Of a DNA stretch of 64,000 nucleotides, positions 35,307 through 58,299 are shown piece by piece. The notes below the pieces were generated by a model. The model ran no database searches. It had not been told where the DNA came from and worked only from the letters and a program-made list of their open reading frames with translations. How positions within the stretch are numbered: position 1 is the first letter of the stretch; every line of letters starts with the position of its first letter. The translations under genes were made by a program, and so were the position numbers. This stretch comes from Verrucomicrobiota bacterium. GTDB taxonomy: Bacteria > Verrucomicrobiota > Verrucomicrobiia > Limisphaerales > AAA164-E04. The stretch is from the NCBI GenBank assembly GCA_047947115.1, contig CP170459.1, forward strand, positions 2,976,001 to 3,040,000, written 5' to 3'.

Positions 35307-35325
35307 TGGAATTAACGAAGAAAAT

Positions 35326-35372
35326 TGGTTGCGGGGACAGGATTTGAACCTGTGACCTTCAGGTTATGAGCC
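35326..35372 (-). other. 3' half of tRNA-fMet, serving as the prophage att junction
   Basis: GGCTCATAACCTGAAGGTCACAGGTTCAAATCCTGTCCCCGCAACCA on the minus strand. Similarity to tRNA stops just 5' of the anticodon loop, about 135 bp from the integrase start. Confidence 0.85.
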
Positions 35373-35507: not shown

Positions 35508-36806
35508 ATGTGCCTAGAAATTAGAAAGTCCAGCAAGTGGTGGTACGGGGTCTTCCGTATCAACGGCGAGAGGACCGTTATTAACCTGCGAGTCCCCATT
35601 ACCGGCAAGCGACCGCCTAAGCGCACCATGCTGGGTGATGACGAGTTTGAGCGGTCACGAGGGAGGGCGCAGCAGGCGTATGAAAAGCAATTCGAGCAGA
35701 TAGAATCCGACCGGACTGGGCAGAAGGCCGTCGCCAAGCTGGCCGAAATGAAGACCGGCAAAGTGGTAGCTTTCCCGGCCCTTGCTGAATTGCCATTGAA
35801 CTGGGATACGATCCCCAGACGCAAGCCCCCGTCCGAGCGATACCGGAACCAATGTCGACTTACTCTGGAACGATTTGCCAAGTATGTCACCAATCACCAA
35901 AAGGGAGCGGTTGAATTTGTTGCCGTCACTCCAAAGACGGCGAAGGATTTCATGGCTGCCGAGGAAGCACGCGGCATCAGTCCGAAGACTTGGAACGACA
36001 CCCTCAAACTGCTTCGGACCACCTTCAAGCATCTTCACCCAAGTTTGAACGATGGGAGTAACCCGTTCCACGGTCTGATTACCAAGGCAACGGAAACCAT
36101 TAACCGAATCCCGTTTACCGTCGAGCAACTCAAAGCAATAACGGAAGCCTGCACCGATGACGACATGATCCGCCCCGTCATCATTACGGGAATGTGTACT
36201 GCAATGCGGCGTGGTGATTGTTGCTTGCTTAAATGGTGCGATGTAGATCTGACCGCCGGATTCCTGACCGTCAAAACAGCCAAGACCGGTCAGACAGTGG
36301 ATATTCCGATTTTCCCCATGCTCAGAGAGGAGCTGAACAAGGCAATGACGGCAACTGCCGGCAAAGGATACTGTTTCCCTGATGCCGCGCTGATGTATCA
36401 ATCCAATTCTGACGGCATCACCTGGCGGGTGAAAAAGGTTTTGGCTCAGGCCCTGGAAGGCCAATCTTTGCAAGTCGCACGGAAGACTGGGAAAAGAAAA
36501 GCATCAGTTCATGACTTCCATTCCTTCCGGGTGACGTGGATCACGTTGGCTCTAGCATCCGGAGTCCCCCTGGAATTGGTTCAGCGTGTCACCGGCCACC
36601 GGACTGTTGAAGTCGTCATGAAGCACTACTTCAAACCTGGGCGGGAGGATTTCCGACAGGCTCTCCTTAAAAGCATGCCTCAAATGATGAGTGAAAAGGC
36701 GAGCGGTTCGGTCAAAGAGGAGATTCGTGCAATTTTGGAGAAAATGACTATTCAATCACTGGAGCTTGATAAACGGAAGTTGCTTGAACTTATTGATATG
36801 GTATAG
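35508..36806 (+). CDS. int: Tyrosine recombinase/phage integrase
   Basis: Catalytic set R (TAMRRGD), K (KTAKT), HxxR (HSFR), H (TGH) and Y (MKHY); next to att. Confidence 0.95.
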   Translation: MCLEIRKSSKWWYGVFRINGERTVINLRVPITGKRPPKRTMLGDDEFERSRGRAQQAYEKQFEQIESDRTGQKAVAKLAEMKTGKVVAFPALAELPLNWDTIPRRKPPSERYRNQCRLTLERFAKYVTNHQKGAVEFVAVTPKTAKDFMAAEEARGISPKTWNDTLKLLRTTFKHLHPSLNDGSNPFHGLITKATETINRIPFTVEQLKAITEACTDDDMIRPVIITGMCTAMRRGDCCLLKWCDVDLTAGFLTVKTAKTGQTVDIPIFPMLREELNKAMTATAGKGYCFPDAALMYQSNSDGITWRVKKVLAQALEGQSLQVARKTGKRKASVHDFHSFRVTWITLALASGVPLELVQRVTGHRTVEVVMKHYFKPGREDFRQALLKSMPQMMSEKASGSVKEEIRAILEKMTIQSLELDKRKLLELIDMV

Positions 36807-36851: not shown

Positions 36852-37583
36852 ATGACTAAAGTAATCACAGCATTTCTCGCGATCATCATTCTGACCCCAG
36901 AAGCAGAAGCGGAGGATCTTCTGCGTTTCAAAAGTAAGTTTCTAGGGGATGGAGTCTTCGAATACGAACTGGATTTTCCTGATGACCGATTTATCGATTT
37001 CGTGAATTTCGATTCTGTGGATTTTAGTGGATGGCAGAGTGGAATCATACTTGATTCCGAGTTTGCAGATAAATGGAGCGAAACCACAAGAGGCTGGCGC
37101 CATGATCCTATTATTTGGGAGACGGTCCCATATGCATCTAAGTTTCGATTGAAAGCAAACTCTGATGCATACCAGGTTTCTAACGTTACAATTGTCTTCA
37201 CTTATCATATGTACCCTTGGGCGGCTCTGGACGGACTTCCAAACAGTATGGAGACACCGCCGAAAACCCGGCTATATGTCAATATGCCTTGCCTGATTCC
37301 CTGTCAGCCGTCAGTGGCAGACGATTCACCTCCAGAACAGATTGCTACTTCACCGGGTTTCACAGACGTAAGAATAGATAGCCTAATCTTCACAAGAGGC
37401 AGACCAACGGGCATTAAATTTGAGGCGCACAATGGAATGCCTGTAAAAATTGAAACAAGCAATGATCTCGACAATTGGGAGAACATAGGTAACACAAAGG
37501 GAACAAGGGGACTAACCACTTGGCATTTCGCTCGTCCAAGCGATGCGGAGAATCAATTCTTTCGCGTTGTTGTTGGGCCATGA
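36852..37583 (+). CDS. Secreted hypothetical protein (prophage cargo)
   Basis: Signal peptide ending AEA; C-terminal IETSNDLDNW...QFFRV; AT-richer than phage core genes. Confidence 0.7.
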   Translation: MTKVITAFLAIIILTPEAEAEDLLRFKSKFLGDGVFEYELDFPDDRFIDFVNFDSVDFSGWQSGIILDSEFADKWSETTRGWRHDPIIWETVPYASKFRLKANSDAYQVSNVTIVFTYHMYPWAALDGLPNSMETPPKTRLYVNMPCLIPCQPSVADDSPPEQIATSPGFTDVRIDSLIFTRGRPTGIKFEAHNGMPVKIETSNDLDNWENIGNTKGTRGLTTWHFARPSDAENQFFRVVVGP

Positions 37584-37662
37584 CCATTGTGAATTAAACC
37601 CATGCGAGCTTGTGCGAAGATTCCTAGTTCGTGCTTTCGGAACCACTAAATGGTTTACCCAC

Positions 37663-37719
37663 TGTTAAAAATTTAACAAACAGCTTGACCTTGCGGTGGT
37701 TTCTGTTAAATTTTTAGCA
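37663..37719 (+). promoter_or_regulatory. Promoter with two palindromic operators for the BlaI-like repressor
   Basis: TGTTAAA-AA-TTTAACA (37663-37678) and TGTTAAA-TT-TTTAGCA (37704-37719) flank TTGACC (37685). The second operator overlaps TGtTAAATT. Confidence 0.7.
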
Positions 37720-37726
37720 ATTAGTC

Positions 37727-38110
37727 ATGAATCTCGATTTCCAATTATCCAAACGTGAAAGACAAATCATGGAGATTTTGCTTTCCCAACCGTCAGCTAC
37801 AGCAGCCGATATTCGATTTTTAATGCCGGAGGCCCCCAGCGATTCGGCTGTCAGAACCCATCTCCGTATATTGGTTGAAAAGGGATATGCACAGCATCGC
37901 AAAGAGGGAAACAAATTTGTTTATTCGGCAAAAGTCTCCAAGAACAAGGCACGGAAATCTGCCCTTCAAAGAATTCTGACTACTTTTTTCGGTGGATCTG
38001 TGGACACAGCTGTAACGGCCTTGTTGGATGTTTCAGACACGCAACTGTCAAAGGCTGAAATAAACCAAATTCAGGGAATCATCGACAAAGCCAAAAAGAG
38101 AGGTAAGTGA
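37727..38110 (+). CDS. BlaI/MecI/CopY family repressor
   Basis: LSKRERQIMEIL, SAVRTHLRILVEKG, FVY and TFFGGS. Confidence 0.92.
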   Translation: MNLDFQLSKRERQIMEILLSQPSATAADIRFLMPEAPSDSAVRTHLRILVEKGYAQHRKEGNKFVYSAKVSKNKARKSALQRILTTFFGGSVDTAVTALLDVSDTQLSKAEINQIQGIIDKAKKRGK

Positions 38111-38111
38111 T

Positions 38112-40028
38112 ATGGAATTCAATACGCTATTGATTCACTGGGAGTGGAAGGGAATCGTTTTACTCACTCTGTCCGCCTGTTTTCTCTGGAGCATGCGAAG
38201 GCGTTCGGCACGCCAACGACATCTCTTTCTTTTTTCGGCACTTCTTTCCCTATTGTTGATTCCGGTGGCTCATCGCTGGTTTTCGAACACCACTTCAAGT
38301 CGATTTCAAATCATCCTCCCTTCAGGATGGGAGCAAGTAGAAGATACATTTCAGATCGGTGTCGATACATTGCGATACAGGAATACCACAGACCATGTTC
38401 AACGTGATGACGATTCAGCAATGGTAAATGGTAATACGAACATCGAACCAAATACTGGAAATGCTCCTTATTCGGTATTTCGAATTTCCGATCTGAGATG
38501 GGATATTTTTTGGGGGATTGGAGTCATTCTTTTGATGATACGACTTGGATGGCAGCACTTGCAGCTGGCACGATTGATCCTAATATCTCCGGAAATCGAA
38601 GATGACCGATTGAAACGGTTGCTTGAACAGACCGTTCTTGATGTGAGGCTGGGCTCCACCCCGAATATGATCGAAACCACCATGCTTGAGGTGCCCGCAA
38701 CTTGGGGGTGGTTCCGGCCGGTTATTTGCTTACCGGCCGGAGCAAGCAGTTGGTCTTCTGAAATCCTAAAGACGGTATTGGAACATGAATGCTCCCACAT
38801 CAAACGCCGAGATTTCCTTTGCCTACATATTGCCAAGATGATTCGTGCGCTGACTTGGTGCAATCCTCTAAGTTGGTGGGCAATTCGTCGATTGCGCAAT
38901 GACATGGAACTTGCCTGTGACGAACAAATCATCGCCAGGGGCACGTCACCATCGCAATACGCTCAGACGCTGCTCAATATGACTCAATTAACTTCTCGGA
39001 TTCCATCCATCTCAGCTATACCTATGGCATCGAAGTCCAACATTCAAAGTAGGATAGAAGCAGTGGTTGCGAAGGACCAAGGAGCCGACACACGCCGGAT
39101 TCGTAAAGAGTGCGTATACATTGCCGGAGTCGCCATGCTTGCTTTGTTCATTGGATGTCAGGGCAGCTCTCCAAAACAAACCATGGCCAATGACTCGAAC
39201 ACTCAATCGCAGCTACCGATGTACGAAAACTTTTCCATCGATGCATGGTTTTTCCCGGAGTTTGTGCGTCAGGAGGATGAATTGAACCACTGGCCAGAAG
39301 TTCCACCCCGTGAAGTGCATGCGTTTAGGGCGTTTGGCGTAAAGGGAGTGGCATACTTGATTGAACGATTGGAGGGAAAACCTCTTGAAAGAATCATCAA
39401 ACTTGAATCCGTTCCAGAGGGAGTCAGAGAACGACTCAGAGAACGGGCTAGAAAACAGCAAGAAACAACTAAACGACACACGGCCGCTCGTCTACTGGGT
39501 GACCTTGGCAAGGATGCAACCGAAGCCATTCCATATCTGGAGGAGGCGGCCAATGATGAAGATTGGTTGCTTAGAGTAGGAGCCAAAGTTGCGTTAATGA
39601 AAATTCGAAATGAACCCATTGATCCATTAATTGACGAGCTATCAGCAACCCTCGGGCATCAGCATTGGAACCGAACAGCAATCATGGTAGGTCAGTTTGG
39701 ATCGCAGGCGGAGAAAGCAATTCCCATCCTCTTGGATATGCTTGAGAAACCTGAAACCATGGATGCTCTCGCAATTGATGCTCACGCAATTGATGCTTTG
39801 GGCATGATAGCCGGACAACCAGAAAAATGTGTTCCTGCGATTGCCGAATTTCTGAAGCATCCGTCAACGGCCTGTCGCCAGAAAGCCATCACGGCCTTGA
39901 TGAGCTTTGCAGAACATAACCAACTTGTGTTACCTGCTCTCCAATCTGCGACAAAAGACAAAGATGGATTGGTAAGTTCACGGGCAAAATGGATCATCGG
40001 GATGTTAGAAAAAGGAAACGCAGAGTAA
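38112..40028 (+). CDS. M56 (BlaR1-type) metalloprotease sensor with a C-terminal HEAT-repeat domain
   Basis: PATWGWFRPVICLP, HECSHIKRRD (HExxH), NPLSW and ELACDE; C-terminal R..AA..LG.LG..A..AIP.L repeats. Confidence 0.9.
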   Translation: MEFNTLLIHWEWKGIVLLTLSACFLWSMRRRSARQRHLFLFSALLSLLLIPVAHRWFSNTTSSRFQIILPSGWEQVEDTFQIGVDTLRYRNTTDHVQRDDDSAMVNGNTNIEPNTGNAPYSVFRISDLRWDIFWGIGVILLMIRLGWQHLQLARLILISPEIEDDRLKRLLEQTVLDVRLGSTPNMIETTMLEVPATWGWFRPVICLPAGASSWSSEILKTVLEHECSHIKRRDFLCLHIAKMIRALTWCNPLSWWAIRRLRNDMELACDEQIIARGTSPSQYAQTLLNMTQLTSRIPSISAIPMASKSNIQSRIEAVVAKDQGADTRRIRKECVYIAGVAMLALFIGCQGSSPKQTMANDSNTQSQLPMYENFSIDAWFFPEFVRQEDELNHWPEVPPREVHAFRAFGVKGVAYLIERLEGKPLERIIKLESVPEGVRERLRERARKQQETTKRHTAARLLGDLGKDATEAIPYLEEAANDEDWLLRVGAKVALMKIRNEPIDPLIDELSATLGHQHWNRTAIMVGQFGSQAEKAIPILLDMLEKPETMDALAIDAHAIDALGMIAGQPEKCVPAIAEFLKHPSTACRQKAITALMSFAEHNQLVLPALQSATKDKDGLVSSRAKWIIGMLEKGNAE

Positions 40029-40111
40029 TGTGACCCTTCTTTCTGAAATCGATCCTCCTGTCAATAGTAGAAGCTGACAACGAATTAAACGTAAGTTCCA
40101 TTGTGCGAAGA

Positions 40112-40930
40112 TTATTGGTTGGACTCTTGCTTGTTGTTACCTATTTTGCGATTTAATTTTTCAATCAACTTGGACGCTCTGCGACTTACAAAAGGGTCCG
40201 GATCTCGAACAAGTGGTTTTAAAAAGTGGATCGCACGTTCTGGTTGGTGCATGCTTGCTATACGATAGGTGGCCCAAAGTCGATCATTGCTTGTAGATCT
40301 GATTCCGTTATACAAAACCGAATGCACATAATTTGATGATTCGTTGGAGTATTTGTTATCTAGTTCTGCTAAAGCATTGTAAGAAAACAATTTGTCAGAT
40401 GTGCTTGTGCTGTTTGTGTGTTGGGATAAGGCATGTATAATATTGATCGAATTGTTTCCAATCTTCCCGATAAACCTGTAGGCATGCTGGCGGGTCGCGA
40501 GTTGATATTTTGATTCGTCCAAATATTTCGTGAAATACTGAGCTGCCTGAGGTCCGTATTCTTCCATCAATCCAAAAATCTCATAGTCTACATCATTCTT
40601 CAACTTCAGTGGATAGCGAGTTCTAACATAGTTGGGCATCCATGACCATATTGTGGTTTTCAACTTATTCATGGCAGTTGAGTGAGTTTCCGCGTTCTTG
40701 CTCAACCATATTAGCCCTTCTGGCCCTGAATCTACTAAAGCCTTTCTGGCATCCATTGCATCATCTAATCGTCCTTCTGCTGAGGCTGCTCGTATTTTGT
40801 GTAGAATAGATGAGTAGTGGAAATTATTGATTATTGAAACGGGACTCTTGGTGAAAAGACTGAAGTAAGTAATTACGAAAATTACTGAGAACAGAATGAT
40901 CATCCGTTTTTTTCTGGTCGTTGTCATCAT
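40112..40930 (-). CDS. Membrane-anchored HEAT-repeat-like protein
   Basis: Basic N-terminus plus one transmembrane helix; helical repeats ending LVRDPDPFVSRRA; AT-rich. Confidence 0.65.
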   Translation of the reverse strand: MMTTTRKKRMIILFSVIFVITYFSLFTKSPVSIINNFHYSSILHKIRAASAEGRLDDAMDARKALVDSGPEGLIWLSKNAETHSTAMNKLKTTIWSWMPNYVRTRYPLKLKNDVDYEIFGLMEEYGPQAAQYFTKYLDESKYQLATRQHAYRFIGKIGNNSINIIHALSQHTNSTSTSDKLFSYNALAELDNKYSNESSNYVHSVLYNGIRSTSNDRLWATYRIASMHQPERAIHFLKPLVRDPDPFVSRRASKLIEKLNRKIGNNKQESNQ

Positions 40931-48384: not shown

Positions 48385-49603
48385 TGCATTACCCTTGGAA
48401 ATCCTGATGGCCGAGTTCTTGTCCGACGGCTGGCATGAACGGATTGAAGAACAAGTCAAGAAGGTCAAACTGGTCCCGTCTGCAAAGAAGCTTCGTGCCT
48501 TTACCACTCGAAAGCAGGAGGACAATCCCAATGAGCTGATCGAGCACCGGTTCCTCTACCGGGGTGGTGTCTGCCTACTACTCGGCCCAACGGGCATTGG
48601 GAAGTCATCCCTACTGATGCAACTGGCAATCAACTTCTCCGTCGGCAAGCCACTTTTCGGAATCACGCCTGGAAGCACTTACCGTAAAACTGGGATGAAC
48701 ATTCTCCTGGTCCAAGCGGAGAACGATGATGACGATCTGACCGAAATGCGGGACGGTGTCTTTGCCGGTTGTGAACTCAACGAGGAGGATGCCGATCGGG
48801 CATTGGATCAAATCACCGTCAGCACGATCAACGATAAGAGTAGCGACGGCTTTGCTCTCGCGCTGGATGGACTCCTGGACGAATACGGGCCTTTTGATCT
48901 GGTCATGATTGATCCGGCCTTCGCCTACCTCGGTGGAGATAGCAACAGCCAGAAGGAAGTCAGCCATTTCATGCGAGAGCTGCTAAACCCACTCCTCCAG
49001 CGTTACAAGGTAGGGTTGATCCTCGCCCATCACACGAACAAACCTCTTCGGGGAAAGGAGAAGGATAACTGGGCGGCGGGAGACTACGCCTACCTGGGTG
49101 CCGGGTCGGCGGAATGGATCAACCCCGCCCGAGCCGCCCTTGCGCTTCGCTCTATCGGTTCGGACACCGTTTTCGAATTGCGGGCTCCCAAACGGGGCAA
49201 GCGGCTTGGTTGGAAAGACGACAATGATCAGTCCACGGTCACCCAGTTGATTGCCCATCACCGTGAGCAAGGCGTCATCTGCTGGCGTGTTGCCGAGGCC
49301 TCGGAGGTCGAGGAAATGGCCTCGGAGGATAAGGACGCCGGTCGGCGTCGTAGCTGCGATCTGACGGAGATCCTTCATTGCATTGAGGCCAACCCCAACG
49401 AGAACCAGGGGTTTTACAAGGAGCTGGCCAGCGAGGCCATGGGATGCTCCCAGCAGGCGGTTCAAAGAGCCATCCAACATTGCCTTCAGGAGGGGTGGGT
49501 TCGCTTCAAAGAACAGGGTCGAAATCGACTCTATCGGATCACAAAAAAGGGCCAAAAAAAGGCCTCAGAACGCCCAAATGCCCATGACTGGAAAAATGAA
49601 TGA
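48377..49603 (+). CDS. AAA_25/RepA-like replicative helicase with a C-terminal winged helix
   Basis: Walker A GPTGIGKS, Walker B LVMIDP, AHHTNK and GAGS; AGGAGG before ATG 48377. Confidence 0.88.
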   Translation: MADALPLEILMAEFLSDGWHERIEEQVKKVKLVPSAKKLRAFTTRKQEDNPNELIEHRFLYRGGVCLLLGPTGIGKSSLLMQLAINFSVGKPLFGITPGSTYRKTGMNILLVQAENDDDDLTEMRDGVFAGCELNEEDADRALDQITVSTINDKSSDGFALALDGLLDEYGPFDLVMIDPAFAYLGGDSNSQKEVSHFMRELLNPLLQRYKVGLILAHHTNKPLRGKEKDNWAAGDYAYLGAGSAEWINPARAALALRSIGSDTVFELRAPKRGKRLGWKDDNDQSTVTQLIAHHREQGVICWRVAEASEVEEMASEDKDAGRRRSCDLTEILHCIEANPNENQGFYKELASEAMGCSQQAVQRAIQHCLQEGWVRFKEQGRNRLYRITKKGQKKASERPNAHDWKNE

Positions 49604-49704
49604 ATCGAAATTGGTTTTAAGCGATTTGATTCTTGCGAAAGACGCTCAACATTAACTGCTACCACATGAAAAAATGTTTCAACATAATCAGCTCTGATTC
49701 ATAT

Positions 49705-49749
49705 GAATCGAATCACCGCCCCCTAAAGGGGGGGCGTTTGATTCGATTC
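49705..49749. repeat. Inverted repeat, candidate replication origin
   Basis: GAATCGAATCA-C-CGCCCCC...GGGGGCG-TT-TGATTCGATTC; further GAATC/GATTC copies in the AT-rich gap after the helicase. Confidence 0.5.
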
Positions 49750-49793
49750 TATTCGGGCGATGCCGATTTTTCGTCGGCCTTAAACGTGGGAGG

Positions 49794-50192
49794 TTGGCTG
49801 TGAGTTTGTCACCCACGCAACGTACGCTTCGAGCTCTACGGGAGCAAGGCTTGATTTGCGCTATCGTCGAAAAATGGAATCCCTACGGAGGGCCTCAAGG
49901 CATCCGGCAGGATCTCTTCGGCATCATCGATGTCCTGGCTTTGGACCCGCAACGTGGCATCGTCGGCGTCCAGTCAACGGGCAACGACTTCGCCGGTCAC
50001 ATGCGAAAGCTGACCGAGCAACGAGCTCAGGAATGCCTGGACTGGCTTTCGACTCCTGGCGCTGTGCTCGAACTCTGGGCATGGCGCAAGGTCAAGGCCA
50101 AGCGAGGAGGCAAGCTCCTGCTCTGGCAACCTCGTGTCGCCATTCTGCAAGCATCGGATTTCAAGCAGGAGGAAGGAGGAGCAACCGCATGA
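49794..50192 (+). CDS. Restriction-endonuclease-fold nuclease, possible Holliday junction resolvase
   Basis: VEKW..DLFGIIDVLAL...GVQST, a (P)D-(D/E)xK-like variant; typical position after replication genes. Confidence 0.6.
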   Translation: MAVSLSPTQRTLRALREQGLICAIVEKWNPYGGPQGIRQDLFGIIDVLALDPQRGIVGVQSTGNDFAGHMRKLTEQRAQECLDWLSTPGAVLELWAWRKVKAKRGGKLLLWQPRVAILQASDFKQEEGGATA

Positions 50193-50716
50193 GCAACGAA
50201 TTTCATGACGATTGGATTCCTGACAACATCGATCCGCTCGATGCCCCAGATCAGGACTTCGACTGGGATAAGCTGTACGAACATCTGAACGAAGGTGTAA
50301 AAGGCCCGCAAACCGATCCAGAATTGGCTCAGGCTGTCGTTCGGCTTCTGCACCTGCTCCTACCGCCCAAGACAGGGCAAAGGCTCCAGGCGAAGAGTCT
50401 GGGGCTCCGCTTGATCGCCTTGGCTTGGTTGCTCAATCCTGGCTACTTCGAGGGGAGTCCATCCCTGAGGACCTTGGCCAAGCGTTGCGGGATTCGTCTG
50501 GCGTCGTTGGCGAACTACACGGGGCACTACAGTCGCTTGCTCAGATGGCGTAACCGGGCGCAGATCCATGCATGGAACTGGTGTCCCAGACGCCGTCCAC
50601 GTCACCGAGGACGGAAGTTGCAACGAAGGGTGAAGCGTAACGTTCGGAAGTTAGGAAAAGGGGCGAATACCAAGCCTGGATTGGGGATTAGTTCGGGCAA
50701 TGGAAGTAAGGCGTAA
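50189..50716 (+). CDS. Phage hypothetical protein with an HTH-like segment
   Basis: ATGA overlap and GGAGGA ribosome-binding site; SLRTLAKRCGIRLASL; basic tail. Confidence 0.55.
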   Translation: MSNEFHDDWIPDNIDPLDAPDQDFDWDKLYEHLNEGVKGPQTDPELAQAVVRLLHLLLPPKTGQRLQAKSLGLRLIALAWLLNPGYFEGSPSLRTLAKRCGIRLASLANYTGHYSRLLRWRNRAQIHAWNWCPRRRPRHRGRKLQRRVKRNVRKLGKGANTKPGLGISSGNGSKA

Positions 50717-50916
50717 CGTTCTGCTTTTAGGTGAAGGATCAAGTTATGAATGGAAAGATAAAGCCCAAGTAGAAGCGTTTGAGAGGCGGTTGGTATGGTT
50801 GATAGAACAGTAAGAGGGACAATGTGTAAAATGGAATATAAAACAGATATAAAACATAAGGAATCTTTTTATAAGACGTTGGCGCACAAGGTTGGGCTTC
50901 AGCCCTGGAAACACGC

Positions 50917-51492
50917 ATGAGCACATCCAAACCAAAAAAACGCGCAGGAGTTCCGCCAAATTCGCAAAAACCCCAGATAAATTGCGCTTTTGACGAGGTT
51001 GTTCCGCTCGAAAAACTCGTCCCAAATCCACGGAACCCGAACCAGCATCCGCCATCGCAAGTCGCGCTTCTTGCCAAGGTAATCGCCCATCAGGGTTGGC
51101 GTTCGCCGATTGTCGTTTCTCGTCGTTCTGGTTTCATCGTCTCCGGTCACGGACGTTTTGAAGCCGCCAAGGCATTGGGGTGCTCGCAAGTGCCGGTCGA
51201 TTATCAGGACTTCAAAACCGACGCGGACGAGTGGGCACATCTGGTCGCCGACAATCGGATTGCGGAGCTTGCCGAAGTTGATGCCAACGGAATCCGAGAA
51301 CTACTCTCCGAACTCAAAGCCGAGGACTTCGATTTGGATTTGGCTGGCTTCGACGCGAGCGCGTTGGAAGGCCTGTTGGCCGAGCCGCAAGAGCCCGAGC
51401 CACCAGAAGATTTCAAGCCAGTCGATGAGGACTTGCCGACCGAGTATCAATGTCCCAAATGCCAGTATCGCTGGAGCGGTAAACCTGCGTGA
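50917..51492 (+). CDS. ParB/Srx-like N-terminal domain protein with a C-terminal zinc-ribbon-like motif
   Basis: LVPNPRNPNQH, GWRSPIVV, IVSGHGRFEAA and ADNRIAELA; C-terminal YQCPKCQYRW. Confidence 0.88.
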   Translation: MSTSKPKKRAGVPPNSQKPQINCAFDEVVPLEKLVPNPRNPNQHPPSQVALLAKVIAHQGWRSPIVVSRRSGFIVSGHGRFEAAKALGCSQVPVDYQDFKTDADEWAHLVADNRIAELAEVDANGIRELLSELKAEDFDLDLAGFDASALEGLLAEPQEPEPPEDFKPVDEDLPTEYQCPKCQYRWSGKPA

Positions 51493-51740
51493 GCGACCCA
51501 TGTTCGAAGGATAAACTAACAGCCCTGCGTCATGCCATTGATGGTATCGATGAGGCAATCTGTGGTTTGATTGCCACTCGGATCGCCCTTTCACATCAAG
51601 CGCAAGAACTCAAACTTCAATCTCGAATCCCGACCTATGACCCACGACGTGAAATCGAAATCCAACAACGATACGAACGCCGATGGTGCGGGGCTTCGAC
51701 CGTTGCCCGCTCCATCTTGAACCTCTGCCGTGAAGACTGA
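51489..51740 (+). CDS. Monofunctional chorismate mutase (AroQ/CM type II)
   Basis: LRHAIDGIDEAICGLIATR...K...YDPRRE. R14, R31, K42, D51 and E55 match the spacing of E. coli R11, R28, K39, D48 and E52. Confidence 0.85.
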   Translation: MSDPCSKDKLTALRHAIDGIDEAICGLIATRIALSHQAQELKLQSRIPTYDPRREIEIQQRYERRWCGASTVARSILNLCRED

Positions 51741-52977
51741 CAAACCGCCATACCGCGTGCCAACGATGAAGGAGATAGCCCAGATCCCGGACAACGGACT
51801 GAGGCTAGTTTCCACTTTCAGCGGTTGTGGGGGATCATGCCTCGGCTACCGCATGGCCGGTTTTCGTGTTATTTGGGCCAACGAGTTCATCCCAGCCGGA
51901 GCGGATGTTTACCGCGCCAACAACCCGACGACGCACCTCGACACCCGTGACATCCGAAAAGTTCAGCCGGAGGAGATCCTTGAGATCACAGGATTGCAGA
52001 AGGGCGAACTCGATTGCTTAGAGGGCTCTCCTCCATGTGCCTCGTTTTCTACCGCTGGCAAACGGCATAAGCACTGGGGAAAAGCTAAACAGTACAGTGA
52101 CACCGTCCAACGAACGGATGATCTGTTCTTCGAGTTCACTCGATTACTGGAGGGGCTACAACCAAAGGTGTTCACGGCGGAAAACGTCAGCGGCTTGGTC
52201 AAGGGTGTTGCCAAGGGCTACTTCCTTGAAATCCTGGCCGAACTCAAATCCTGTGGCTACCGTGTAGGCTGCAAGGTGCTCGACGCTCAGTGGCTGGGTG
52301 TTCCTCAAGCCCGGCAACGAACGATCTTTGTTGGCGTTCGGGAGGACTTGGGCAAAGAGCCCGTTTTCCCGAAACCACTGCCATACCGCTATAGCTTGAA
52401 GGATGCTCTTCCCTGGATCGTGCGCGGCAAATACGGACCAACCTGGAAACAGGCAAACATCCCAAGTCCCACGGTCAACGCGCATGGTTCCTACAATCCT
52501 GAAACCAGCCACCAGGGTTTGGAGTTGGTCGAAGCCCGAATCGTGGGTGGCACCGGCGCGCCGTTCGATCACAAGGGCCAAGCGTTCGACCTGAATCAAC
52601 CATCACCTACGATTCTCGGGACCAAGCCGAATCAGTTCGAGGTCGACATGGGCCGCTTTGCCATCGGTCGGGAGTGGGACAAACTGAAACCAGGGGAGGC
52701 ATCGGGCAAATACTTCAACCTTGTGCGACCTCATCCCGATCATCCTTGCCCGACCATTTGCGCAAGCCACGGCCATCCCGGTGTTGCCAGTGTCACCCAT
52801 CCAACCGAAAAGCGGAAGCTCACCATCGACGAGTTAAAACGCATATGTGCATTTCCGGATGATTTTGTTTTAAGCGGAAGCTACTCCCAACAGTGGGAAC
52901 GACTCGGGAGGGCAGTTCCACCTGTCATGTCCTTTCACATCGCACGAACCATACGAGATGAAATCTTCAACCTTTAA
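51730..52977 (+). CDS. DNA cytosine-C5 methyltransferase-fold enzyme, predicted carboxymethyltransferase
   Basis: Motif I FSGCGG, IV GSPPC (C103), VI ENV, VIII QARQR; motif X is LGRAVPP instead of GNAVPP. Confidence 0.88.
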   Translation: MKTDKPPYRVPTMKEIAQIPDNGLRLVSTFSGCGGSCLGYRMAGFRVIWANEFIPAGADVYRANNPTTHLDTRDIRKVQPEEILEITGLQKGELDCLEGSPPCASFSTAGKRHKHWGKAKQYSDTVQRTDDLFFEFTRLLEGLQPKVFTAENVSGLVKGVAKGYFLEILAELKSCGYRVGCKVLDAQWLGVPQARQRTIFVGVREDLGKEPVFPKPLPYRYSLKDALPWIVRGKYGPTWKQANIPSPTVNAHGSYNPETSHQGLELVEARIVGGTGAPFDHKGQAFDLNQPSPTILGTKPNQFEVDMGRFAIGREWDKLKPGEASGKYFNLVRPHPDHPCPTICASHGHPGVASVTHPTEKRKLTIDELKRICAFPDDFVLSGSYSQQWERLGRAVPPVMSFHIARTIRDEIFNL

Positions 52978-53629
52978 CGTCCCCAAGCATTGGAGCTTTA
53001 AGAACGTAACCGTTGCAAAGCACTTCGACCAGCATGTGCGCGAATCCCTTCCGTGGTATGATCTGGCCACGAACGCTGTTGCGCATTTTGCCAGGCACTA
53101 CATCCCGCACAATGGCGTCGTTTACGACATCGGGGCATCTACCGGAAACATTGGCCACGCGATCAAGGAGACTCTTGTTCAACGTCAGGCGCAGTTTTTC
53201 GCCATTGAGGAGAGCCCGGAGATGGCAGAGCGCTATGACGGGCCACCCCAACTTGTCGTCGCTGATGCGGTGGCACATGAGTTCAAGCCCTTTGACTTCG
53301 CTGTGTGTTTCCTGGTGCTGATGTTCCTGCCAGTCGAAATACGGATGGAGTTCCTTCGCAAATTGCGAGGGCTCACCAAACCTGGTGGTGCCTTGGTTGT
53401 CGTCGACAAGGTTCAGATGCCAGCCGGGTATGTCGGAACCGCCTTCAGTCGCCTGACTATGCAGCAGAAGTTGGCTGTGGGAGCGAAGCCGGAGGAAATC
53501 CTGCGCAAAGAACTCTCGCTTGCCGGATACCAACGTCCGCTTGATCCGCAGACACTCCCCGAAGGAGCTTTGCCATTCTTCCAGGTCGGCGAGTTTGTCG
53601 GGTGGATCCTGCCTGCGGCCGAACGATAA
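52958..53629 (+). CDS. CmoA-like carboxy-S-adenosylmethionine synthase
   Basis: WSF..VAKHFDQHVRESLPWY, VYDIGASTG, LVLMFL, KPGGALVVVDK and EEILRKELSL follow the CmoA motif order. Confidence 0.78.
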   Translation: MKSSTFNVPKHWSFKNVTVAKHFDQHVRESLPWYDLATNAVAHFARHYIPHNGVVYDIGASTGNIGHAIKETLVQRQAQFFAIEESPEMAERYDGPPQLVVADAVAHEFKPFDFAVCFLVLMFLPVEIRMEFLRKLRGLTKPGGALVVVDKVQMPAGYVGTAFSRLTMQQKLAVGAKPEEILRKELSLAGYQRPLDPQTLPEGALPFFQVGEFVGWILPAAER

Positions 53630-53632
53630 GTC

Positions 53633-54274
53633 ATGGCTGATGCTGGCGCCATCTCAACCACACAACTTGCTAAGCTCTCCGGGCTGAGTGATCGACGCCT
53701 TCGTGAACTGGCCAGCGAGGGGTGGTTCCCCAAATCATCCGATGGGCAGTATCAGTTGGTTTCCACGATTCAGGGATTGCTTCGTTATTACCGGGAACGG
53801 GAGCAATCCCGGATCATTCTCGATTCCTACGACAGCATGGGATCGTGTTCCGCTGCTACAGGCATTCCGATAACGACCATCAAGCAGGCCAAACGCCAGG
53901 GGTGTTCAGGATTTCGTGGGAGCCGTGTTTACCTGGCTCCGCTGCTTCGGTGGTTGTTCGAAGACACGGACGGTTCACAAGTCAACTACGACCATGAGCG
54001 GGCGCAGCACGTCGTCCTGCAAAACGCCAAGTTGAAGGTGGAGCTACGGCAACTCAAGAAGGAGTTGCTGCCGGTCGAGGAGGTCAAGCACTTGGGGGCC
54101 GAATTGGGTGCTGCGATTCGCAAAGTGATTTCACGACTGCACCGCTCCGCGCCTTCGCTGGAAGGACAAGACATCGACGTGATCGAATCACGACTCAAGG
54201 AGGAAGAGGACGAGATACTGAAGCAGCTTCACACCTTGGATGAGCGGTTCAAGTCTTGGGATCGAGCGGATTGA
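53633..54274 (+). CDS. Terminase small subunit (Nu1-like)
   Basis: N-terminal winged HTH (QLAKLSGLSDRRLRELASEG) and coiled coil ending ELLPVEEV; upstream of the large subunit. Confidence 0.75.
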   Translation: MADAGAISTTQLAKLSGLSDRRLRELASEGWFPKSSDGQYQLVSTIQGLLRYYREREQSRIILDSYDSMGSCSAATGIPITTIKQAKRQGCSGFRGSRVYLAPLLRWLFEDTDGSQVNYDHERAQHVVLQNAKLKVELRQLKKELLPVEEVKHLGAELGAAIRKVISRLHRSAPSLEGQDIDVIESRLKEEEDEILKQLHTLDERFKSWDRAD

Positions 54275-54284
54275 TTTCGTAGGT

Positions 54285-55088
54285 CTAAGGCTGGGGTGCT
54301 TCGAGGGGGTATTGCTCAGCCAATTCGGGAGCGATTCTGGAAAGGGCTTCGTGTGCTTCTCTTTGCCTTTGCCTCTGGAACATTTCATAGCGATTTCGAG
54401 GCCGAGTTGAATCCGTATCGACTGTGATTGAAACAAATGAATTTGTGATTGAGTTTAGGAGGATGGGAATACCGTTTGTGGCTTTTCTGTCAATTTTTGA
54501 TAAGTAAATGGCGGCTTCGAGTCGTACCGTGTTATCTGGATCATCGAGCATAGTTTTGAAGAAATTTTTCTTGTAGTCCCAGTGTTGGGTTCGTTTTGAA
54601 ATGGACTTGATCAAATCAAAGTAACCATCGGAAGACCCTTGCGACTTATAAGCCGGATACAATTCCATCAATTCTATCACGAATGGATCCAAATTTTCAA
54701 TTGGCAGGCCTTTGAGATATGAAAGGGCAATCTGCTTTTTATAAATACCCTTCACTTCGACTGGTAATAATTTTCTGATCTCGTCCGGAATTTTAAGGTA
54801 GAGCTCATAATAGGCCTTGCTGAGGGTTGAATCTGCTGAATGGATTTTGTTGATTAGGTAGGGAACGCTGTTTGTTCCCATATTTGAAAAAGCTACTTTT
54901 GCTGCGTTTATGGTGTCAGCAAGTCCCGGATGCCCTTGCTCCCCGTAGAACCACTCATCTGCATTTTTCCCTTCGTACACAGGTAAGTCTGAATCTTTCA
55001 TCAAAGCAATAAAGACTACTGCTGTCACTACTAACAAGAGAAACGCAAAGGATGCGGCAATAATGGCTTTATGTGATGGGGCTTTCAT
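54285..55088 (-). CDS. Membrane-anchored HEAT-repeat protein (moron)
   Basis: One transmembrane helix; PVYEGKNADEWF, MGTNSVPYLI and LDDPDNTVRLEAA..L; AT-rich and antisense to the phage genes. Confidence 0.75.
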   Translation of the reverse strand: MKAPSHKAIIAASFAFLLLVVTAVVFIALMKDSDLPVYEGKNADEWFYGEQGHPGLADTINAAKVAFSNMGTNSVPYLINKIHSADSTLSKAYYELYLKIPDEIRKLLPVEVKGIYKKQIALSYLKGLPIENLDPFVIELMELYPAYKSQGSSDGYFDLIKSISKRTQHWDYKKNFFKTMLDDPDNTVRLEAAIYLSKIDRKATNGIPILLNSITNSFVSITVDTDSTRPRNRYEMFQRQRQREAHEALSRIAPELAEQYPLEAPQP

Positions 55089-55204
55089 CTGCTCTTTGTC
55101 GATCAATCTTTTAAGGCGGCGTTGAACCTAAAAATTCAAATGCCTTTTCTTGCCCAATTCGACAATGGACACCCTCCCACCGTTCATTTTAAGAGGTCCA
55201 TCGT

Positions 55205-55678: not shown

Positions 55679-57445
55679 ATGCGAACGCCACGCCATCCCC
55701 TCATCGAAGGATTTTGCTCCGCCTGTCGCCCAGCCGATAGGCGGCCACCATGGCAATGGTGCGAGCAGCATGTCCAGGTTGATGAGACTTCCCCGATTCC
55801 TGGTCGGTGGCGTTCGGATGCCTCCCCTTGGGTGCGCGCAGTGATGGAGGATTTTGCCGACAACGCCATCCGGGACATTGCCGTTCAATGTGCGGCTCAG
55901 AGTGCCAAGACCCAAACGGTCATGAACTGCGCCTGCTGGGCCATCGCCGAGGATCCAGGCCCTGCCATGTGGGTGACGGCTACCAAGGATGAGCTTCGGG
56001 ATTTTATGCGGGACCGGCTTACGCCAACCTTCGAATCCTGCCGCCCGGTCAGGGATCGCATGGCCGAACCCACCTTGTCAGGATTCGCTTTCGACGGGAT
56101 GCCTTTCTACGCTGGTTGGTCGGGATCAAAAGCACGCCTGCAATCCAAACCCATCCGCTGGCTCTTTTGTGATGAGGTTCGCAATTACCCGCCTGGGCGT
56201 TTGGAGATGGTCCTCAAACGAACACGATCCTTCTGGAACTCTCGTCGGTTCCTGATCTCGACGCCCGGGACCAAGGGCGACGCCATGGACACCGCCTACC
56301 GGGCGGGGGATCAGCGTATCTGGCATTTTGAGTGCCCGAAGTGTCACCAGTTACAGCCGCTCAAGTTCGAGCAGTTGAAATGGGATTCTAACGACACGAC
56401 CAAGCCCGAAGGCAAATGGCGATTTGATCTGCTTGCCGAGACAATCCGGTTCGAGTGCGTTTCCTGCTCGCACAAGATCAAGGACACTCCCATTGATCGT
56501 CGATGGATCGAGAACCACGGGGAGTTTGTCCCCCAGAATCCCAACGCTCCACGATCCAAGGTTAGCTACACTTGGAACGCGCTCCTACCGCATTGGATCG
56601 AGTGGAGGTCGATTGTCGAGGAGTTCCTGGCTGCGGTCGATGCCATGCGCCTGGAGGGGGACATAGAGCCCATGTATACCTTCGTCACCGAAACCCTGGG
56701 TGAACCTTGGGACTTGGATCGGTGGCTGATTACGAGTGATGATTACATCCAGCAGCGTAAAGGGGAATACGATTTTGGCGATGCCTGGCCGATTGAAAAG
56801 ACAAGATTCATCGCAGCCGACAGGCAGGCCCGTGGCGGTGAGCATTACTTTTGGGTGGCTCGGGCCTTTGGGGCTGGTGGAGCAAGTCGCCTAATTGGTT
56901 ACGGCCGCTGCAACACGACGACCGAACTCGAAGAAATCCGAAAGCAGTTAAACGTCCCCGTCGTCAACGCCATGATTGATTCCGGGTTCAAGGCCTCTGA
57001 GGTTTATCGATTTTGCCAGGCCACGGGCTGGAAAGCGATGAAGGGTGATGACGCCGAGTGGTTCCTTACCCAAGACCCGAGGACTAAGAAGACCGTCCGC
57101 CGAGTCTGGCGTCGGGTGTTGGTTGATCCCACACTTGGGACCAAGAAATCAAGAGTCCGTCGACATCTTCCGCTCTTCCAGTGGTCCAACCCGAGCATCA
57201 AGGATCACTTGGCATTGTTTACGCACGGAGTAGTCGGGCAATGGTCGATACCGAGAACGACAGGCCGGGATTATGTCGATCAGATGACCGCCGAGGTCCG
57301 AGAGGAGAAAGAGGATTCACGAGGCCGCATCAAGGTCATTTGGGTTCAGAAGCGTCGGGATAACCATTACCTGGATTGTGAGTTGATGATTGATGCGGCG
57401 GCGATTATTACGAATGTGCTGAGGGCGAGTAGTGAATCGAGTTGA
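55679..57445 (+). CDS. Terminase large subunit (lambda GpA family)
   Basis: PGRWR, AQSAKT Walker A, LFCDEV, ISTPG, CPKC and CVSC zinc motifs, LGEPW, IDSG and NHYLDC. Confidence 0.95.
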   Translation: MRTPRHPLIEGFCSACRPADRRPPWQWCEQHVQVDETSPIPGRWRSDASPWVRAVMEDFADNAIRDIAVQCAAQSAKTQTVMNCACWAIAEDPGPAMWVTATKDELRDFMRDRLTPTFESCRPVRDRMAEPTLSGFAFDGMPFYAGWSGSKARLQSKPIRWLFCDEVRNYPPGRLEMVLKRTRSFWNSRRFLISTPGTKGDAMDTAYRAGDQRIWHFECPKCHQLQPLKFEQLKWDSNDTTKPEGKWRFDLLAETIRFECVSCSHKIKDTPIDRRWIENHGEFVPQNPNAPRSKVSYTWNALLPHWIEWRSIVEEFLAAVDAMRLEGDIEPMYTFVTETLGEPWDLDRWLITSDDYIQQRKGEYDFGDAWPIEKTRFIAADRQARGGEHYFWVARAFGAGGASRLIGYGRCNTTTELEEIRKQLNVPVVNAMIDSGFKASEVYRFCQATGWKAMKGDDAEWFLTQDPRTKKTVRRVWRRVLVDPTLGTKKSRVRRHLPLFQWSNPSIKDHLALFTHGVVGQWSIPRTTGRDYVDQMTAEVREEKEDSRGRIKVIWVQKRRDNHYLDCELMIDAAAIITNVLRASSESS

Positions 57446-57567
57446 TACGCCATTTTTGCTTGAGTGCGGGAAATGTATCTTGTTGAATTCCACTATGGCC
57501 TAACAAGTTATGAGGCGCGTTTGAATATGCCCGTGTTGAGTTTTTGAAATCTAGATTGCATGCGCAC

Positions 57568-58299
57568 ATGAAGAATTTGGCGAAAAGACCAATGTGGAGG
57601 AGAAAACGATGGTTGGTTATCATCGTAGTGATTGCTGTGGTTTTTGGTGCCAGTGCAATCCGGGAATTTCGGATCAGTAAACTACCCCCGAAGGAGCGGC
57701 GGTTAAAAAACTCCCAGTTCAGTTTCAGGATAGCTTCATTAAAGTATCGCTGGGGAAGTCGCATGGTGGATGGGATTGAGCAAGTGACTGGCCCTATTGC
57801 AATAGCCAGCCAATTTGCTGACTATCTTGGTTCAAAAAAGAAAGTCGCGTCTGATGAATTACGAGACGCATCCCATTTCGCTTCTATTGAAATCGTGGGC
57901 ATTTATGAAGATCGACATGAATTTAATAACGCGGCTGCAAAAATACACCTCAAGGGACTCTCTAGAAATTCCACGTTTATAATCACAAAGATGGATGATC
58001 AAAAAAGGTTTCAGAACGGTGAATTGAGAGTCCCTAACCAATTCGCTGAACAAGCCAGAAAAATCTTGGACAACACGGAGGTGTGCATTGTTAAATCGTT
58101 CCCATATGACTCGGAAAAGGAGATCAGCCAAGCTGTGGATACAATGAGAGCAAAGGGTGTTCGAGCAGTTTCAATGTCTTTTCGAGATGACTTCGGTGAT
58201 CCTCATAAGTCGATTTTCGTGCTTACCGAGGATAAGGAAATTGCAGAACAGGCCTTAGAATCATTTCCACGAGTTCAGCCAATCCCTAACCCCAAATAA
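57568..58299 (+). CDS. Membrane-anchored hypothetical protein (moron)
   Basis: RRKR plus one transmembrane helix; AT-rich; inserted between terminase and head genes. The start is uncertain. Confidence 0.65.
   Translation: MKNLAKRPMWRRKRWLVIIVVIAVVFGASAIREFRISKLPPKERRLKNSQFSFRIASLKYRWGSRMVDGIEQVTGPIAIASQFADYLGSKKKVASDELRDASHFASIEIVGIYEDRHEFNNAAAKIHLKGLSRNSTFIITKMDDQKRFQNGELRVPNQFAEQARKILDNTEVCIVKSFPYDSEKEISQAVDTMRAKGVRAVSMSFRDDFGDPHKSIFVLTEDKEIAEQALESFPRVQPIPNPK

Follow-up and report, generated by a model that had tools for sequence, protein, structure and literature searches.

The locus described here raises the question of what a stand-alone chorismate mutase (CM) gene contributes to a prophage in which it directly precedes the genes of a predicted DNA-modification system. 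The window, which is the whole 64,000-nucleotide stretch of DNA analysed, is part of a 6.08-Mb single-contig genome and contains the CM region of a prophage of about 41 kb, with genes in the order parB-CM-cmoX-cmoA-terS (Table 1). A second copy of the 57-bp repeat that bounds the prophage on the left is located 41.1 kb downstream, outside the window (G000:C1:3052437). The labelled homologues of the CM family come from Verrucomicrobiota assemblies, which suggests a host of that group. We propose that CM is probably an optional prephenate booster for the formation of 5-carboxymethylcytosine by this operon. According to this model, CM would turn host chorismate into prephenate, forming a free pool that bypasses host PheA; the adjacent CmoA-like enzyme would use prephenate to produce carboxy-SAM (Cx-SAM), with which CmoX would carboxymethylate the cytosines of phage DNA, and CM would in this way keep up carboxymethylation across the whole phage genome late in infection. 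Neither the fold of the enzyme nor the pathway of modification is new in itself.

Table 1. Features of the CM-containing prophage located in the window.
Feature	Position	Strand	Evidence
Likely attL, 57-bp direct repeat of tRNA-Met end	35316..35372	.	Repeat search and ARAGORN on the genome
Phage integrase, left end of prophage	35508..36806	+	PF00589, E 1.2e-15
ParB-N (ParBc) domain protein, usual first gene of CmoX modules	50917..51492	+	PF02195, E 7.1e-05; PHROG ParB-like families; PMC12783734
Chorismate mutase of type II (AroQ), stand-alone, 83 aa; predicted supplier of prephenate	51489..51740	+	PF01817, residues, model and fold, family conservation, dN/dS
CmoX-type DNA cytosine C5 transferase, predicted carboxymethyltransferase	51730..52977	+	Best PDB match 8YF3; SPPC with C103; R394
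CmoA-like protein, predicted carboxy-SAM synthase	52958..53629	+	TIGR00740 best NCBIfam match; CmoA PDB matches; phrog_4752
Small subunit of terminase, separated from cmoA by 3 bp	53633..54274	+	phrog_57, E 6.1e-17
Terminase large subunit (gpA type), marks packaging region	55679..57445	+	PF05876, PF20454

The possibility that CM is a host gene caught at the edge of the prophage was ruled out: the gene lies 16 kb inside the element, and its family is found in none of the 21 related genomes, nine of which give only weak matches, in frames of 365-460 aa. The prophage also carries cargo genes (36852-40930, 54285-55106, 57544-58299). They code for a BlaR1/M56 peptidase that contains HEAT repeats, for a HEAT-like protein and, among the packaging genes, for two products that lack annotation and look secreted.

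The CM gene begins with a GTG codon and shares 4 bp with the upstream parB-like gene and 11 bp with the downstream C5-transferase gene. The only domain recovered in the Pfam search of its product was CM_2 (PF01817; 40.5 bits, where the cut-off is 27, and E 3.1e-10), while in NCBIfam the protein scores under the cut-off of every subfamily model. It aligns without gaps, at an offset of +3, with the mutase domain of the E. coli P-protein (EcCM, AroQ-alpha; 1ECM), and its residues R14, R31, K42, D51, R54 and E55 are equivalent to EcCM R11, R28, K39, D48, R51 and E52; unlike the P-protein, CM has neither a dehydratase nor a regulatory domain and lacks the Gln88 region. The first-pass annotation, made from the letters alone, had described an 83-aa AroQ that overlaps both neighbours, carries R14, R31, K42, D51 and E55 at the E. 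coli spacing and is free of dehydratase and regulatory domains, all of which agrees with these results; R54 had been missed. That annotation also spoke of an enzyme free of feedback control, for which the evidence is the absence of a regulatory domain, and CM may indeed lack such control; the structurally closest class of CM is regulated through a partner enzyme.

A profile search for the CM family yielded 51 clusters, aligned in 52 rows, in which R14, R31, K42, D51, R54 and E55 are kept in 51, 52, 52, 51, 50 and 50 rows, respectively. Residues L34, S35, H36, Q37, A38 and Q39 of helices 1-2, which lie outside the active site, show conservation of 90% or more. CM is a genuine gene under purifying selection, with a median dN/dS of 0.23 and a maximum of 0.46 (18 loci, 118 usable of 153 pairs), and is somewhat less constrained than its neighbours: parB, cmoX, cmoA and terS have dN/dS of 0.11-0.12 at the same loci, so that the constraint on CM is about half as strict. 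A pseudogene or chance open reading frame was rejected because dN/dS was below 0.46 in all usable pairs.

The CM gene has the form of a clean 241-bp cassette flanked by two GTGA stop/start couplers, and in four relatives (L264, L275, L276 and L279) parB is coupled straight to cmoX via GTGA or ATGA. Contigs from the metatranscriptome runs X15 and X17 span the CM gene, those from X16 cover it in part and those from X18 do not, these contigs being open to DNA carry-over and not counted as expression. A search of positions 49600-54400 for a sigma-70-like promoter found none, a result that is uninformative for the CM operon.

The first-pass annotation had pointed out that the C-terminal helix is short, with no visible equivalent of Gln88, and had questioned activity for this reason. 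The AlphaFold2 model of CM (mean pLDDT 94) comprises three helices, as in the AroQ fold, and provides no position for Gln88 because the third helix stops at residue 81 and the chain at residue 83; the long third helix with Gln88 that distinguishes AroQ-alpha is thus predicted to be absent. The top rows of a Foldseek search with this model are chorismate mutases (probability 1.00, TM up to 0.89, no E-value reaching 0.001). Its best fold matches are the Mycobacterium tuberculosis and Corynebacterium glutamicum enzymes MtCM (2W1A, 5MPV, 6YGT) and CgCM (5HUD), with TM of 0.76-0.89 as against 0.68 for EcCM. These two represent class AroQ-delta, which CM resembles in length and in its short third helix devoid of a Gln88 equivalent, and with which it aligns ungapped at an offset of +4 (5MPV/6YGT). 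MtCM, itself lacking a Gln88 equivalent, is described as weak in the absence of DAHP synthase, the substitutions T52P and V55D together raised its autonomous efficiency 22-fold, and in selection experiments position 84 tolerated only Cys, Ser or Gly, with Arg85 dominating (PMC7762937). The prophage enzyme has P48 and D51 at the positions of T52P and V55D, and its C80-R81 fits the Cys/Ser/Gly84-Arg85 pair when the alignment, which ends at MtCM residue 83, is extended without gaps by two residues; a loop pair and a C-terminus like those of the evolved autonomous variants are thus present in a natural protein. Each of these four residues is kept in 48-51 of the 52 rows (C80 in 49, R81 in 48).

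CM nevertheless differs from AroQ-delta in several respects: it is 18-28% identical to these enzymes, its chain ends two residues past the Arg85 equivalent, and it is encoded by a phage, in which its gene has no DAHP synthase gene as a neighbour. It is best classified as AroQ-delta-like rather than as a member of that class because Lys42, present in 52/52 rows, stands where MtCM has Arg46. Given that a short C-terminus belongs to a known active class (PMC7762937), the missing Gln88 should not disqualify CM; the observation made in the first-pass annotation thus stands, while the worry about activity is largely answered by the AroQ-delta comparison, and mutase activity appears likely. Isochorismate pyruvate lyase PchB has the same fold, shares Arg and Lys residues with CM and gives a weak NCBIfam match (E 0.006), with lower fold scores. 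This assignment was ruled out by Asp51 and Glu55, which follow the mutase pattern, whereas PchB has Ala51 and Val55 (PMC12329711).

The same structural likeness could also indicate a binding role, in which CM would be a weak or partner-dependent AroQ. It might bind prephenate or chorismate or act as a sensor for them, or it might divert or channel flux by docking on CmoA or on the DAHP synthase of the host. Wild-type MtCM needs its DAHP synthase partner (PMC7762937), the matching MtCM and CgCM structures are mostly those solved in complex with that enzyme, and the conserved stretch from L34 to Q39 could mark an interface. We consider such a role unlikely, as CM retains the full set of catalytic residues and also the Pro/Asp pair to which autonomous activity is ascribed, and the occurrence of unrelated AroQ lineages in the same slot, described below, is more easily explained by a common product than by a common interface. 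In addition, no CM domain, and no CM-CmoA fusion, was present in the 20 longer or atypical CmoA homologues scanned of the 150 listed.

For CM to act as a prephenate booster, the enzymes encoded downstream should be able to form and use Cx-SAM. CmoX proteins were recognized by an SPPC motif and an equivalent of Arg350, the features described in PMC12783734. The CmoX-type protein of the prophage matches SpCmoX (8YF3) with E 4.9e-64, against 4.2e-27 for M.HaeIII; its C103 lies in the SPPC motif, and R394 is aligned on SpCmoX R350, the Cx-SAM arginine of motif X. According to PMC12783734, CmoX with this arginine accepts only Cx-SAM, and its product DNA resists HhaI. The CmoA-like protein is under the cut-off of its best NCBIfam model (TIGR00740, E 1.3e-14), and its top PDB matches in both sequence and fold are CmoA structures (1IM8, 4GEK, 4IWN; TM 0.81-0.84). 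CmoA uses SAM and prephenate (PMC12783734).

The CmoA-like neighbour could instead make or use another SAM derivative, leaving CM to feed some other step or to be a passenger. Arg199 of CmoA, described as the key carboxylate ligand (PMC3663124), falls in the column of E185, and Glu occupies this column in 76/85 members of the family; the same CmoA subfamily is moreover paired with a different, non-C5 transferase in 32/38 loci without cmoX. Active SpCmoA, however, also has Glu in this column, the sequence profile (E 4.5e-31) and the fold both rank CmoA first, and the adjoining transferase, like 100/101 of the cmoX partners, has the Cx-SAM-specific Arg. The conserved R165 (72/85) or R193 (60/85) of the CmoA-like family could replace Arg199. 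We consider another SAM derivative quite improbable, and the CmoA-like protein is regarded below as a predicted carboxy-SAM synthase.

The different transferase is a ParB-methyltransferase-like fusion of about 500 aa (phrog_5475, with a weak Methyltransf_23 match), accompanied by a small gene (phrog_32036) in the same 32 of the 38 distinct cmoA loci without cmoX (examples are L028:2786-4297 and L092:5977-7473). The pair occurs in 0/101 cmoX loci, and the fusion is a candidate for a second carboxymethyl transferase that is not of the C5 type; no adenine-N6 or cytosine-N4 type was found by Yang et al. (PMC12783734). One further module has a gene of the uracil-DNA-glycosylase superfamily between cmoX and cmoA (L029:4511-4864).

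The closest characterized counterpart is the CmoA-CmoX-CmoY 5-carboxymethylcytosine system of Synechococcus phage S-B43 (Yang et al. 2025, PMC12783734; 8YF3), with which the prophage shares a C5 transferase carrying SPPC and the Cx-SAM arginine and a CmoA-like neighbour; it also has a ParBc gene, which that paper found in many such contigs. The two systems differ in that CM is absent from S-B43 and added in the prophage, that the prophage belongs to a temperate phage integrated at a tRNA gene, and that the prophage CmoA represents a distant subfamily, only 23% identical to SpCmoA. The prophage also lacks the amide ligase CmoY, an optional capping enzyme: when the genome was searched with six ligase queries, the single match lay far outside the element. 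The modified base may stay uncapped because this ligase is missing.

The position of CM is fixed. Members of its family lie directly after parB at 12/12 viral loci, at 20/20 loci in 6 assemblies and at 10/11 metagenome loci with at least 51% identity, and cmoX follows directly at all parB-CM loci except L358, whose contig ends at CM. CM was placed between parB and cmoX at 42/43 close loci, a partly redundant count in which several loci represent one element present in two collections. The remaining 24 of the 35 metagenome matches are weaker, cellular-type mutases.

Conversely, most modules work without CM. Three cmoA scans, each taking the best 80 of 539-574 loci, together with one further search gave at least 139 distinct CmoA proteins, 89 of them with visible parB and cmoX; the sample is biased because the best loci were ranked by likeness to the cmoA genes of the prophage, L100 and L070. 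In this similarity-ranked sample CM is present in 11/89 parB-cmoX modules, eight of which belong to the prophage CM clade, and absent in 78/89. It is likewise absent from S-B43 and from the reconstitution in E. coli, where SpCmoX modifies DNA on host supply alone (PMC12783734). CM is regarded as a booster and not as a core part because of these CM-free working cases.

A PF01817 scan of 152 cmoA-bearing viral records, mostly fragments, gave eight matches, and all eight lie in the parB-cmoX gap. Three of them (L070, L100 and L123) represent different AroQ lineages. Identity to the prophage CM is 25% for L100 and 29% for L070, no higher than the 33% of the host PheA domain, and L123 is 38% identical to L100. 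This one slot is thus occupied in distant phages by two AroQ lineages unrelated to the prophage CM. In a quick tree built from 89 cmoX rows, the presence of CM requires five changes, at least four of them forced by well-supported branches, with L070 forming a long branch. Among terminase-selected relatives with a visible junction, eight have CM and four, with terminases 87-92% identical, are cleanly without it; none of the 75 terminase-selected loci, many of them short or distant, has CM without cmoX and cmoA. Gene context, conservation and repeated recruitment thus support the reading, offered in the first-pass annotation, of CM as the source of prephenate for the CmoA-like enzyme, with the qualification that it is an optional add-on.

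Loss of CM is suggested for L023/L279, which is nested among CM carriers on the cmoX tree. Several assemblies (L103-L122) have up to six related prophage copies of the module; CM or cmoX frames are broken in L106, L121 and L122, and cmoX contains insertions in L117 and L119.

The host genome, with a completeness of 95.8%, encodes chorismate synthase, a separate prephenate dehydrogenase and a single other AroQ, a 353-aa PheA fusion, and neither AroH nor CmoA was found in it. In PheA the dehydratase competes for prephenate, and feedback by Phe applies. In this host, where the sole other mutase forms a fusion with a prephenate-consuming dehydratase, prephenate is presumably limiting; CM would act as an active dimer, and its gene would raise the level of modification.

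Alternatively, CM could be a classical auxiliary metabolic gene that supplies Phe and Tyr for virion protein synthesis, its position being incidental. Some amino-acid benefit is possible through phenylpyruvate, which CmoA turnover reportedly also yields, and a stand-alone CM occurs in the 484-kb jumbo phage LR756508.1 (L352:5962-6231), near dnaK and genes for small membrane proteins, in a record without a CmoA or U32 match. This explanation is very improbable for the prophage gene, since all CM matches of the cmoA-bearing records lie in one intergenic slot, the operon has no dehydratase or dehydrogenase gene alongside CM, and the host already has PheA and prephenate dehydrogenase. The label itself is in print: as the first-pass annotation had predicted for automated pipelines, a virome study lists a viral chorismate mutase as an auxiliary gene of aromatic amino acid metabolism (PMC10465536), and no CM-related match occurs in the readable files of its supplements.

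Other phage CMs were sought by tblastn in 50,697 phage records with three CM sequences as queries; alignment A8 recovered only its own locus. The queries matched 1, 8 and 4 records, among which three scaffolds of faecal origin and records of Acinetobacter (two), Listeria (two) and Salmonella (one) resemble host DNA (four inspected). In Yersinia phage fHe-Yen9-01 (L353:1570-3937), found with the L123 query, a PF01817 gene is flanked by a U32-family gene and a thymidylate-synthase homologue, and annotation indicates the same arrangement in Serratia phage LC53 (L356:1718-3923). Relatives of this T4-like phage CM are present in 48 phage records, and the U32 gene in 222. Hydroxylation of tRNA of the U32 type is prephenate-dependent, cells mutated in both pheA and tyrA show impaired cmo5U modification, and mutase-only pheA accumulates prephenate and restores prephenate-dependent modification (PMC6599085). 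The main text of PMC13326640 contains no mention of chorismate, prephenate, peptidase or U32.

The sole close relative of the prophage CM outside the module (L366:1-1679, 51% identical, on a 1.8-kb metagenome contig) is placed after a B3/4-domain gene and a U32-like gene, the latter two genes off; this setting is a possible source context of the CM family. Not every phage CM fits the role of a prephenate feeder, because the LR756508 gene lacks a CmoA or U32 match. A broader proposition appears to us evenly balanced when all its parts are taken jointly: that phages repeatedly captured stand-alone CMs to feed prephenate into two or more chemistries of DNA modification, among them carboxymethylation via carboxy-SAM and hydroxylation of the U32 type; that most genuine phage CMs labelled as auxiliary genes of amino-acid metabolism serve in counter-defence; and that the prophage CM family is a naturally autonomous form of a short, normally partner-dependent AroQ.

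The literature search, which covered papers outside subscription, revealed no publication in which a phage mutase is connected with the modification of DNA. The main text of PMC12783734 contains neither chorism-, mutase nor AroQ, and its four supplementary files (one searched in part) neither chorismate, PF01817 nor mutase; the same paper names the availability of prephenate across hosts as an open question. The operon described here gives a testable answer to the question of supply, namely that some phages bring their own mutase. If this is true, the auxiliary-metabolic-gene label in print (PMC10465536) would be corrected, and a three-gene cassette would become available for producing carboxy-SAM, and DNA carboxymethylated with it, in hosts that lack CmoA. 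The CM family would also represent a natural test of the directed-evolution results on short chorismate mutases.
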